24,727 bases of DNA, from positions 1 to 24,727 of the forward strand of contig JBHJGN010000040.1 of NCBI GenBank assembly GCA_050331735.1. Reading direction: 5' to 3'. Position numbers and translations under genes: made by a program. This document shows, piece after piece, positions 2,498 through 4,817 of the stretch. This DNA is from Cyanophyceae cyanobacterium (GTDB taxonomy: Bacteria; Cyanobacteriota; Cyanobacteriia; Cyanobacteriales; JBHJGN01). The notes under the pieces were generated by a model. That model worked only from the letters and a program-made list of their open reading frames with translations, was not told the origin of the DNA and ran no database searches. Position 1 is the first letter of the stretch. Every line of letters begins with the position of its first letter.

Positions 2498-2506
2498 TGA
2501 TAAATT
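2498..2506 (+). promoter_or_regulatory. Candidate extended -10 promoter (TGnTAAATT) for the structured leader
   Basis: TG-A-TAAATT at 2498-2506 would place a TSS near 2513, just before the first helix at 2521. Motif match only. Confidence 0.3.
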
Positions 2507-2520
2507 AGGAGTGTAAGTTA

Positions 2521-2610
2521 AATAACGTAACGGATGAGGGTTTTGCCGCTGTGACTCATTGCCCAAGACCGAAGGAGAGCGAACTGGCAGGTTAGGGACG
2601 ATACGTTATT
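2521..2610 (+). promoter_or_regulatory. Glycine-riboswitch-like aptamer, GGAnGA-type variant
   Basis: P1 is AATAACGTA(A)CG 2521-2532 paired with CG(A)TACGTTATT 2599-2610. Then junction GGATGA (2532-2537), P2 GGGT...GCCC, and ACCGAAGGAG...CTGGCAGGT TAG GGAC. This follows the glycine aptamer order P1-GGAGA-P2-ACCGAAG..CTYTCAGG..GGAC-P1, with core changes. Confidence 0.65.
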
Positions 2611-2619
2611 AGATTGACA

Positions 2620-2732
2620 AATGCGGTGTGGAGTTTTTATCGCTTCCTCCACTTGACTACCAGCGAGGCGAGGCGCAACCCTCGCTCAGAGCGGTCTGAG
2701 TTGGTAGACGTAATGGGTCAATCACTCGCATT
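2620..2732 (+). ncRNA. Unidentified multi-branch structured RNA domain, possibly a second aptamer
   Basis: Nested helices: AATGCG/CGCATT (2620-25/2727-32), GTGGAG/CTCCAC (2628-33/2647-52), TTGAC/GTCAA (2653-57/2717-21), CTACCA/TGGTAG (2657-62/2702-07), GCGAGG/CCTCGC (2663-68/2680-85), CTCAGA/TCTGAG (2685-90/2695-2700). It is a GC-rich island followed by very AT-rich DNA. Confidence 0.5.
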
Positions 2733-2763: not shown

Positions 2764-2809
2764 CAGCCTTCCTTGTTCGGACAGACGTTCGACGGGAAAG
2801 GCTGTTTCT
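2764..2809 (+). terminator. Long hairpin with a short T-tail; candidate attenuator or expression platform
   Basis: CAGCCTTCCTTGTTCGGAC-AGAC-GTTCGACGGGAAAGGCTG followed by TTTCT. The G-U wobble pairs work on the + strand. Confidence 0.45.
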
Positions 2810-2905: not shown

Positions 2906-3406
2906 ATGATTATGGAGACACTCAGATTAGCTCTCAGGTACTTTGAGGAACAGGATCTCGATTCTCTATCAGCGATTTTGGCCGATCCTGAAGTGATGCA
3001 GTTCTCCGCGGTGGGACCAATGGCGCGAGCGCAAACACAAGAATTCCTAAGAGAAATACTTGCCTCTTATCAGCAGCAAGGCTACGGCCTCTATGCAGCG
3101 ACCCATCAAGAACAGCAGCTAATTGGCTACTGTGGTTTAATTAGACAAGTAGTTGATGGCAATCAAGAAATTGAAGTAGGTTATCGGCTGGCTCGTTTCT
3201 ACTGGGGAAAAGGATTAGCGACCGAAGCAGCAACCGCCGTCCGTGATTATGGCCTGCATCAGCGAGGCTTTAAGCGTCTGATTTCTATGATCGATCCTAA
3301 TAATTATCGCTCTATCCGAGTTGCTGAAAAAATTGGGATGGAATACGAGAAAGATTCTGTGTTTAAAAATATTCCAGTCAGAATTTATAGTCCGTCTAAT
3401 AGCTAA
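2906..3406 (+). CDS. GNAT N-acetyltransferase, RimJ/RimL-like
   Basis: ETLRLALR, IGYCGL, EVGYRLARFYWGKGLATEAA, NYRSIRVAEKIGM. Confidence 0.92.
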   Translation: MIMETLRLALRYFEEQDLDSLSAILADPEVMQFSAVGPMARAQTQEFLREILASYQQQGYGLYAATHQEQQLIGYCGLIRQVVDGNQEIEVGYRLARFYWGKGLATEAATAVRDYGLHQRGFKRLISMIDPNNYRSIRVAEKIGMEYEKDSVFKNIPVRIYSPSNS

Positions 3407-3850
3407 ATGGCTCAAACGGATGTGCTGATTCGACAAGCCAGATTAGAAGATGTTGAACGCGTTACTATACTGTGTCATCAGTTAGGGTACTCAACCTCTA
3501 CCCAGGACGTACAAACATATATCAAAACTTTAGCTGCTCACAGGTGTATTGTTTATGTCGCTTGCCACAGCGATCGCCCAGTCGTCGGTTTGATTAACGT
3601 TTATGTAGCTAATGAGCTGTTGCTAAGTAAACAAGCGGAAATCGGTGCTTTAATTGTTGATGAAGCGTACCGTTCCGGCGGCATTGGTCGCCTACTGGTG
3701 CAGCACGGACAGCAATGGGCCAAAGAGCAAGGCTGTCATGTTTTACAAGTCCGTGCCAACGTCATTCGTGACTCTGCCCACGCTTTCTATAAACGGATTG
3801 GATGTGAGCTTTACAAAAGCCAGCGAGTTTTTCGCAAGCCGCTAGCTTAA
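3407..3850 (+). CDS. GNAT N-acetyltransferase, PhnO-like (possible aminoalkylphosphonate N-acetyltransferase)
   Basis: AEIGALIVDEAYRSGGIGRLL, WAKEQG and NVIRDSAHAFY...FRKPL resemble E. coli PhnO. It abuts the upstream stop (TAAATG) and directly precedes phnJ. Confidence 0.85.
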   Translation: MAQTDVLIRQARLEDVERVTILCHQLGYSTSTQDVQTYIKTLAAHRCIVYVACHSDRPVVGLINVYVANELLLSKQAEIGALIVDEAYRSGGIGRLLVQHGQQWAKEQGCHVLQVRANVIRDSAHAFYKRIGCELYKSQRVFRKPLA

Positions 3851-3890: not shown

Positions 3891-4817
3891 GTGACTCAAC
3901 TCGATCGCTCCAACAGCCAAACAGTATCCAACTCGGCTTCTCTTCGAGAAGATATTCAGCACTCAGAACCAGGATTCAACTTTGCCTATCTAGATGAGCA
4001 AACCAAGCGTTCCCTGCGTCGGGCGTTGCTCAAAGCCGTCGCCATTCCCGGACATCAAATTCCCTTTAGTTCCCGCGAGATGCCGATGTCCTACGGTTGG
4101 GGAACGGGAGGAATCCAGGTAACGGCTGCTGTGATTGGCAAAGACGATGTGCTTAAGGTCATCGACCAAGGCGCAGACGATACCACCAATGCCGTCAATA
4201 TTCGGCGTTTTTTTACCAAGGTGTGTGGAGTCGAAACCACAGAATCAACCGCCGCCGCCACTCTGATTCAAACCCGCCATCGTATTCCGGAAACGCCGTT
4301 ACAGAAAGGGCAAATTATTATCTATCAAGTGCCGATGCCAGAGCCTCTGTATTTTTTGGAACCTTCGCGAACCGAGTGCCGGAAAATGCACGCTCTCGAA
4401 GAATACGGTCCCATGTACGTCAAGCTCTACGAAGATATTACTCAGCATGGAGCGATCGCCCAATCCTACGACTATCCGGTAATGGTCCATCAGCGCTACC
4501 TAATGAAACCCAGTCCAATTCCCCGCTTTGATAACCCTAAAATGCACATGAACCCGGCTTTACAGCTATTCGGTGCAGGACGGGAAAAACGCCTCTACGC
4601 TATTCCTCCCTACACAGAAGTCAAAAGTCTAGACTTTGAAGACTACCCCTTCACTGTCGAACGATGGGACAAAGCCTGTGAGTTTTGCGGTTCTACCGCT
4701 AGCTATTTAGATGAAGTCGTTACGGATGACCAAGGAACCAGACTGTGGCTTTGTTCCGATACCGACTACTGCAACAGCCGCCAGCAATTCCAGCACAAGC
4801 GTCAACTAGGCTCATGA
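3891..4817 (+). CDS. phnJ: Alpha-D-ribose 1-methylphosphonate 5-phosphate C-P lyase PhnJ
   Basis: FAYLDEQTKR, KAVAIPGHQ (glycyl radical Gly), YGWGTGG, KVIDQGADDTTNAV, and CEFCG...CSDTDYC Fe-S cysteines. GTG start. Confidence 0.97.
   Translation: MTQLDRSNSQTVSNSASLREDIQHSEPGFNFAYLDEQTKRSLRRALLKAVAIPGHQIPFSSREMPMSYGWGTGGIQVTAAVIGKDDVLKVIDQGADDTTNAVNIRRFFTKVCGVETTESTAAATLIQTRHRIPETPLQKGQIIIYQVPMPEPLYFLEPSRTECRKMHALEEYGPMYVKLYEDITQHGAIAQSYDYPVMVHQRYLMKPSPIPRFDNPKMHMNPALQLFGAGREKRLYAIPPYTEVKSLDFEDYPFTVERWDKACEFCGSTASYLDEVVTDDQGTRLWLCSDTDYCNSRQQFQHKRQLGS

Follow-up and report, generated by a model that had tools for sequence, protein, structure and literature searches.

A conserved RNA domain downstream of CyVA-1 in cyanobacteria, predicted to interlock with it through crosswise loop-loop helices

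Introduction

Two folded RNA elements lying one directly after the other raise the question of whether they act separately or as parts of a single molecule. The question arises at positions 2620-2732 of a cyanobacterial contig (the window, here, is the whole stretch of 24,727 nucleotides that was analysed). The original prediction, made from the letters of this DNA, took the element upstream for a glycine aptamer and the flagged stretch for a second, unrecognised multi-junction domain built from six helices: either an orphan aptamer forming a two-input tandem switch, or an independent sRNA, for which a TTGACA hexamer at 2614-2619 was noted, with no convincing -10 element.

The upstream element proves to be a member of CyVA-1, an orphan Rfam family without an assigned role. 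In the available part of the report by Weinberg et al. (2017, PMC5737381), CyVA-1 is found among large intergenic regions and its RNAs average 78 nt. The accessible part of a halite metatranscriptome study names CyVA-1 as a detected sRNA (PMC7002113); the supplements of that study do not mention it. In the searchable literature these two papers are the ones that mention CyVA-1, and no second domain beside it was found in print there. What is new here is thus the second domain and its predicted interlocking with the first, which extend the known CyVA-1, the upstream domain itself being already catalogued.

Results

The upstream domain and its constant companion

A covariance-model search against Rfam identifies the upstream domain (D1) as CyVA-1 (RF02965): it scores 61.8 bits, and the gathering score of this 77-position model is 41.4.

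2527-2604, plus strand: D1, a three-way junction of P1 (2527-2532/2599-2604), P2 (2535-2538/2555-2558) and P3 (2563-2570/2590-2596), based on the RF02965 match and on covariation

The glycine aptamer is thereby lost: a permissive Rfam scan of 2450-2920 returns no row for the glycine riboswitch (RF00504) at E up to 10, and the first reading was misled by the strings CCGAAGG and CAGG, which resemble those of that riboswitch. For the flagged stretch, Rfam at E up to 10 gives only chance-level rows, in agreement with the absence of a known family anticipated for it.

The genome of the window carries CyVA-1 three times, every time with the flagged stretch repeated behind it; the three copies are 76-87% identical over the RNA only, and their flanks are unrelated. 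By blastn the flagged stretch is found in 14 of 40 relatives from the same order, often more readily than CyVA-1. A covariance model built for the second domain, D2 (the model is called R1), and the Rfam CyVA-1 model match exactly the same 16 genomes in a phylum sample of 151. At all 21 CyVA-1 places in this sample D2 follows on the same strand after 13-74 nt, and 21 of the 22 D2 places have CyVA-1 upstream. Among 151 genomes of the window's own order, D2 is present in 61 genomes at 76 places, often in two or three copies. Over all 79 loci an HMM of D1 places D1 upstream of D2 in 77, the CyVA-1 domain being 13-86 nt away, which bears out the tandem arrangement originally proposed; the two exceptions (G014b and G216), where D2 has no recognisable D1, look decayed. 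Phage and plasmid collections yield no blastn match to 2520-2730.

Further duplication of the unit is seen at several places. Two whole D1-D2 units stand head to tail at L011 (G039:C120:9780-10204) and at L022 (G025:C2:67869-68192), the second unit of the latter genome being degenerate. At L082:248-326 (minus strand, genome G261) a degenerate third CyVA-1-like domain of 44.6 bits follows directly after D2; its L2 loop is decayed, it has no D2 of its own, and it appears to be what is left of a duplicated unit.

Anatomy of the second domain

Judged by conservation and covariation among its homologues, the flagged stretch is a genuine RNA domain, both folded and conserved, with a core at 2612-2723. 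It is predicted to form a three-way junction (P1, P2 and P3) with an extra closing helix, P0.

2605-2611, plus strand: variable linker before P0; the gap from the D1 match to the start of the D2 model is 5-86 nt across loci
2612-2618, plus strand: 5' strand of P0, GAUUGAC, pairing with 2717-2723 (7 bp) and containing the TTGACA originally read as a -35 element
2622-2625, plus strand: 5' strand of P1, UGCG, pairing with 2709-2712; 82.1% paired, double changes at 4 of 4 pairs
2628-2633/2647-2652, plus strand: P2 hairpin with the conserved 13-nt loop UUUUUAUCGCUUC; 98.9% paired, double changes at 5 of 6 pairs
2657-2664/2700-2707, plus strand: P3, enclosing P4 and a conserved 3' internal-loop strand; 95.6% paired, double changes at 8 of 8 pairs
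2669-2673/2680-2684, plus strand: P4 hairpin inside P3, loop CGCAAC; 98.4% paired, double changes at 5 of 5 pairs
2685-2699, plus strand: conserved strand CUCAGAGCGGUCUGA, containing AGCGGU at 2690-2695, the 3' strand of the loop-loop helix K1; not a conserved hairpin
2709-2712, plus strand: 3' strand of P1, CGUA, within the strand ACGTAATGG (2708-2716)
2717-2723, plus strand: 3' strand of P0, GUCAAUC, the partner of 2612-2618

As in CyVA-1, P1 encloses P2 and P3, and all three helices show covariation. P3 is not a simple hairpin, as it holds P4 and a large internal loop. The plus strand is favoured by the many G-U pairs in the helices and by the CyVA-1 match on that strand. The sequence of the linker between D1 and D2 is not conserved among homologues, and in many of them P0 is a helix of 8-13 bp of unrelated sequence. 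Cognate linkers and tails form duplexes with a mean of -7.18 kcal/mol, non-cognate ones with a mean of -4.30 kcal/mol, and none of 2000 permutations is as good.

The multi-helix domain of the original prediction is therefore present on the plus strand, with an anatomy that differs from the one proposed. Half of its six helices stand, namely GTGGAG/CTCCAC (P2), TACCA/TGGTA (the core of P3) and GCGAGG/CCTCGC (P4), each supported by covariation in alignments of 19 and of 77 sequences. The remaining three do not. The hairpin CTCAGA/TCTGAG (2685-2690/2695-2700) is paired in 54.3% of cells, is equalled by 474 of 500 shuffles and shows no covariation; the outer helix AATGCG/CGCATT (2620-25/2727-32) is by eye not seen in the two paralogues of the same genome and competes with the covarying P1; and GTCAA (2718-22), assigned to the TTGAC at 2654-58, more likely pairs, by homology, with the linker copy of TTGAC to form P0. 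The strand at 2708-2716, supposed to be unpaired, contains the 3' strand of P1, whose pairs all carry double changes.

Covariation and folding statistics

Minimum free energy alone says little about this stretch. At 2620-2732 it amounts to -37.9 kcal/mol on the plus strand, with an unremarkable z of -1.28 (26 of 200 shuffles are as good) and a z of -3.02 on the minus strand. Within the homology-derived bounds 2612-2723, z falls to -2.73, 2 of 200 shuffles are as good, and P0 to P4 are recovered. The full 2527-2723 gives a z of 0.03 with D1 misfolded, because minimum free energy folding cannot model loop-loop helices. The z-score that the original prediction looked to for a check is thus of little help at its own coordinates, and the support is carried by comparative evidence.

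RNAalifold finds four helices of D2 in an alignment of 19 sequences (A3), where 97.9% of cells are paired against 40-56% in slid controls and 18 of 23 pairs have changes on both sides. None of 500 shuffles matches the observed values, although such shuffle statistics overstate the support, since the sequences are kin. A larger alignment (A6) takes in 77 full-length sequences, aligned by MAFFT and fitted to no structure, and covers the seven helices of D1 and D2; it excludes G014b and G216, whose D1 is unrecognisable, and includes G050, whose D1 has an insertion of about 40 nt. Here 91.5% of cells are paired against 40-46% in slid controls, and 40 of 41 secondary-structure pairs show double, compensatory changes. 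Compensatory and G-U changes are already visible among the three copies within the window's genome, which agrees with the earlier view that the stretch is not a multicopy repeat or an IS end.

Kinship of the two domains

To judge from its alignment to the CyVA-1 model, D2 resembles a copy of the CyVA-1 fold that arose by duplication and then diverged, its L3 loop opened by the inserted hairpin P4. The model aligns to D2 over its full length in each of 4 loci (29.3-31.5 bits, E 9e-4 to 4e-3), where P4 appears as a 30-nt insertion in L3, and at E up to 1 it does so in 10 of another 20. In these 14 of 24 loci the D2 homologues score 21.7-32.4 bits against RF02965, below the gathering score; the window's own D2 has no CyVA-1 match at E up to 10. 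Conversely, R1 weakly matches D1, with 25.9 bits in genome G171.

The aligned features comprise P1, the GG after P1, P2 with its GUUUU.YCGYU loop, the UUA joiner, CCGA(A)GG, AGAGCG, and the AC that precedes the 3' strand of P1. The L2 motif of CyVA-1, GUUUUaCCGUU, recurs in D2 as UUUUURYCGYUUC, and the L3 motif, GAAGGAGAaCGAcGUCA, is split in D2 by P4 into GAGG ... AUCAGAGCGGUCUGA. D2 is thus not the unrelated orphan aptamer it was thought to be: its homologues at 14 of 24 other loci align end to end with the CyVA-1 model, and D2 has L2, J2/3, CCGA(A)GG, AGAGCG and AC motifs in common with CyVA-1. The similarity of D1 and D2 could also be convergence on one fold.

Crosswise loop-loop helices

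The conserved loops of D1 and D2 are complementary in a crosswise manner, and comparison of homologues predicts that the two domains are joined through two loop-loop helices, K1 and K2.

2545-2550, plus strand: 5' strand of K1, hexamer GCCGCU in loop L2 of D1, pairing with 2690-2695 in the L3-derived strand of D2
2578-2582, plus strand: 5' strand of K2, pentamer AGCGA in loop L3 of D1, pairing with 2640-2644
2640-2644, plus strand: 3' strand of K2, UCGCU, in loop L2 of D2, UUUUUAUCGCUUC

In the 77 sequences K1 is 93.9% paired with double changes at 4 of 6 pairs, and K2 is 98.4% paired with double changes at 3 of 5. Taken together, the two helices are 96.0% paired against 32-49% in slid controls; 7 of 11 pairs are changed on both sides, in 111 cells, and the covariation of 0.451 compares with 0.257 in shuffled alignments, no shuffle among 500 being as high. 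The loops occur in 39 distinct combinations, for example GCCACU/AGUGGU with UCGCC/GGCGA, or GCUGUU/AACAGC with CCGUU/AACGG.

The same loops could instead pair within each domain, and this alternative was rejected. Intradomain pairing reaches 83.2% against 81.1% in shuffled alignments, and its pairs are broken in 44 and in 29 of the 77 sequences; a pseudoknot between L2 of D2 and the 3' strand of D2 itself amounts to this alternative and fails with it. The number of standard pairs per sequence is higher for the crosswise arrangement in 66 of the 77 sequences, equal in 10 and lower in one. By mean Watson-Crick pair count the crosswise arrangement is better in 23 of 25 families, and the two exceptions, the window's own family (f1) and f28, slightly favour the intradomain one. 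The window itself, with 11 of 11 pairs crosswise and 10 of 11 intradomain, cannot discriminate between the two, and its family is exceptional because its four loop strands are nearly identical. Two domains predicted to be base-paired together in this way are at odds with the idea of a two-input switch made of two independent sensors.

Single domains on viral contigs

A pattern scan of viral contigs (IMG/VR) returns six stretches, two of which are CyVA-1 above the gathering score: L107 with 43.0 bits and L109 with 54.6 bits. R1 scores of 34 and 25.9 bits are obtained for the two, and no second R1 match is found within 250 nt of either. These single domains combine a P2 stem and L2 loop that resemble those of D2 with an L3 loop that resembles that of D1. 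Each has an L2 and an L3 hexamer that match perfectly as complements within the domain (GUCGCU/AGCGAC and AUCGUU/AACGAU), a complementarity that does not appear in the structure line printed by Rfam for CyVA-1. Pairing in the viral domains would thus be intradomain, whereas in the cyanobacterial tandem such pairing is swapped between D1 and D2. Given this self-complementarity, the tandem resembles a self-kissing single domain in domain-swapped form. One viral domain (L109:206-300) ends about 10 nt before AAGGAG and an ATG, a leader-like placement; the other (L107) is followed by a GC-rich hairpin.

Transcript ends

The ends of the putative transcript are suggested by motif frequencies and by a predicted hairpin.

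2501-2519, plus strand: promoter-like -10 candidates TAAATT (2501-2506) and TAAGTT (2514-2519)
2764-2809, plus strand: terminator-like hairpin (2764-2804, -20.8 kcal/mol) followed by UUUCU, the likely 3' end of the RNA

Across 76 loci TANNNT hexamers number 71 in the 17 positions from -37 to -21 before D1, about twice the frequency further upstream (66 in 33 positions), and are rare from -20 to -1 (16 in 20 positions). A consensus scan of the window finds no sigma-70 site on the plus strand. In 52 of 79 loci the 220 nt after D2 contain a stable hairpin with a U-rich tail, a weak terminator signal, as the reverse complement gives 35 of 79; a stricter consensus scan finds no terminator in the window. 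In the window 47 nt separate the hairpin from D2, and across loci the hairpins end at a median of 82 nt after D2. The stretch between D2 and the hairpin does not align among the three paralogues of the window's genome.

Discussion

The observations are best explained, with a probability of about 0.78, by a single composite, interlocked non-coding RNA that stands alone and depends on its shape, with CyVA-1 D1 as its 5' half and 2612-2723 as its 3' half. The two halves would fold together, L2 of D1 with the L3-derived strand of D2 (K1) and L2 of D2 with L3 of D1 (K2), into a pseudo-symmetric, self-interlocked "dimer in one chain" of about 200 bases. Transcription would start from a promoter some 25-30 nt upstream of D1 and end at the terminator-like hairpin some 50-100 nt after D2. 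Such a stand-alone RNA would act by its shape, for instance by binding a protein or a small ligand at the junctions or at the interface, and neither by antisense pairing nor as the leader of the next gene. A shape-dependent role appears likelier than an antisense one in view of the unaligned stretch between D2 and the hairpin and of the loop strands engaged in K1 and K2.

One competing explanation, which we consider unlikely, places the RNA in the 3'-UTR of a membrane-protein gene or has it co-transcribed with that gene, the window's copy being a dispersed paralogue that lost this context. In 27 of the 61 RNA-bearing genomes of the order sample, a gene for a predicted membrane protein of 230 aa does precede the RNA on the same strand (for example L030:1997-2689, minus strand), although one of the 27 has a small gene between the two; by locus, it adjoins the RNA in 12 of the 49 loci with at least 1.9 kb of sequence. 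RNA and protein occur together in 44 genomes of that sample, the RNA without a protein match in 17, the protein only in 18 and neither in 72, counts in which kin are not independent. The association is set against a distance of 120-300 nt from the stop codon to D1, against the enrichment of -10-like hexamers just before D1, and against the 17 RNA-bearing genomes that gave no match to the protein. Nor does the gene adjoin any of the three RNA copies in the window's genome, where its homologue lies at G000:C15:76619-77305; a degenerate RNA copy after this homologue (L050) was looked for and not found. The protein has no family in Pfam or NCBIfam, and its ESM Atlas matches are each a "hypothetical protein", mostly from cyanobacteria.

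Quite improbable, too, is a cis-acting tandem riboswitch in which each domain senses a ligand and the pair together governs the GNAT gene at 2906. Two related junctions in tandem recall the tandem glycine aptamers, a terminator-like hairpin does stand between D2 and the GNAT gene, and one of the viral single domains comes directly before a Shine-Dalgarno-like AAGGAG and an ATG. The genes downstream, however, differ at every locus. Among the nearest downstream ORFs of at least 80 aa at 22 loci, 12 run on the opposite strand, and the other 10, on the same strand, belong to differing Pfam families or to none at all (GNAT in the window; GT4, HAD, caspase, Wzy_C and NAPRTase elsewhere); genes of glycine cleavage or transport, which a glycine switch would be expected to precede, are not among them. 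Such variety makes it unlikely that the RNA serves some conserved gene as a leader or riboswitch. The hairpin, clear of both P0 and P1 at its distance from D2, leaves no alternative-pairing platform visible, and no conserved expression platform is seen after D2 across loci. No riboswitch model, for glycine or otherwise, matches at E up to 10, and domains base-paired together argue against independent inputs. As to the genes themselves, the window carries two adjacent GNAT acetyltransferase genes (2906-3406 and 3407-3850, plus strand) followed by PhnJ of C-P lyase (3891-4817, plus strand), and the three may be the start of a phosphonate-use cluster.

An independent sRNA covering only 2620-2732 and driven by the TTGACA at 2614-2619 is very hard to uphold. 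The hexamer is a perfect -35-like match, but no -10 is found for it, and TTGAC is one strand of the covarying P0 in a linker of unconserved sequence; the near-constant presence of D1 upstream, and the pairing of the D2 loops with D1, also speak against a separate start. The view that the fold is due to chance, or that it is what remains of a repeat or an IS end next to a transposase fragment, could appeal to the modest z at 2620-2732, to the three copies in the genome and to the fragment at 228-1139, and has a negligible probability in the face of copies alike over the RNA only and of covariation, spread across 25 families in A6, that rules it out. The fragment itself is a 303-aa ORF on the plus strand of the ISKra4 transposase family (NF033572, 276.7 bits, profile positions 60-420 of 422), and looks truncated at its N-terminus.

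With its varied and often opposite-strand neighbours, the D1-D2 unit is thus, most probably, a single structured RNA that stands alone; it is not a two-input switch, nor is the flagged stretch an sRNA of its own. A broader reading is more tentative, and we give it somewhat worse than even odds: that CyVA-1 in cyanobacteria is one half of a pseudo-symmetric, domain-swapped kissing-loop RNA of about 200 nt with a closing helix, derived from a single-domain form of which viral contigs still carry examples. Such an RNA would be the equivalent of a 3D-domain-swapped dimer among proteins, and as a rigid scaffold with two sites it could be a new trans-acting class that binds a ligand or a protein and is possibly tied to the membrane protein.

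Comparison with known systems sets the unit apart in several respects. The tandem glycine riboswitch consists of two homologous three-way-junction domains in contact, with an extra helix that involves the linker between them. The contacts between D1 and D2 differ from those of RF00504 in being Watson-Crick loop-loop helices, and the unit has no glycine-related or conserved downstream gene. In the guanidine-II (mini-ykkC) and ZTP (pfl) riboswitches, two modules separated by a variable linker dock by loop-loop or pseudoknot pairing. D1 and D2, by contrast, are full three-way junctions, show no similarity to the models of these riboswitches at E up to 10 and have no visible expression platform. 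The closest relative remains CyVA-1: D1 is a member of RF02965, and D2 shares with that family the three-stem junction, an L2 loop of the form GUUUU(U)RYCGYU and the other motifs that line up with its model. The 77 positions of RF02965 include neither D2 nor P0 nor the cross-domain helices, and D2 adds P4 to the fold.

If the two-domain unit is true, the CyVA-1 family model and its boundaries cover half of the molecule, and probing, structure determination or ligand screens carried out on the 77-nt piece would miss the partners of both conserved loops. The unit would also be a rare case in nature of duplicated RNA domains that have swapped parts. The swapped-loop architecture is amenable to compensatory-mutation experiments, and the recurrent adjoining membrane-protein gene would provide a first handle on the function of the RNA.

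A few loci carry additional features near the RNA. Two complete D1-D2 units stand about 730 nt apart in genome G171 (L035 and L046; G171:C1:404302-405226), and each is followed within about 45-100 nt by an ORF of 137-142 aa without a Pfam family, whose N-terminus resembles a double-glycine leader. An ADYC-domain gene and an ABC transporter with a C39 peptidase lie nearby. CRISPR repeats (CRISPR-DR5, 43-48 bits) are found at L047:29-216 in genome G114, some 1.2 kb ahead of an RNA copy. In one genus (L036 and L039-L042, group g33) a conserved imperfect palindrome, TGTAAAGAATTCTGTACA, lies about 150 nt upstream of D1 and may be a binding site for a regulator.
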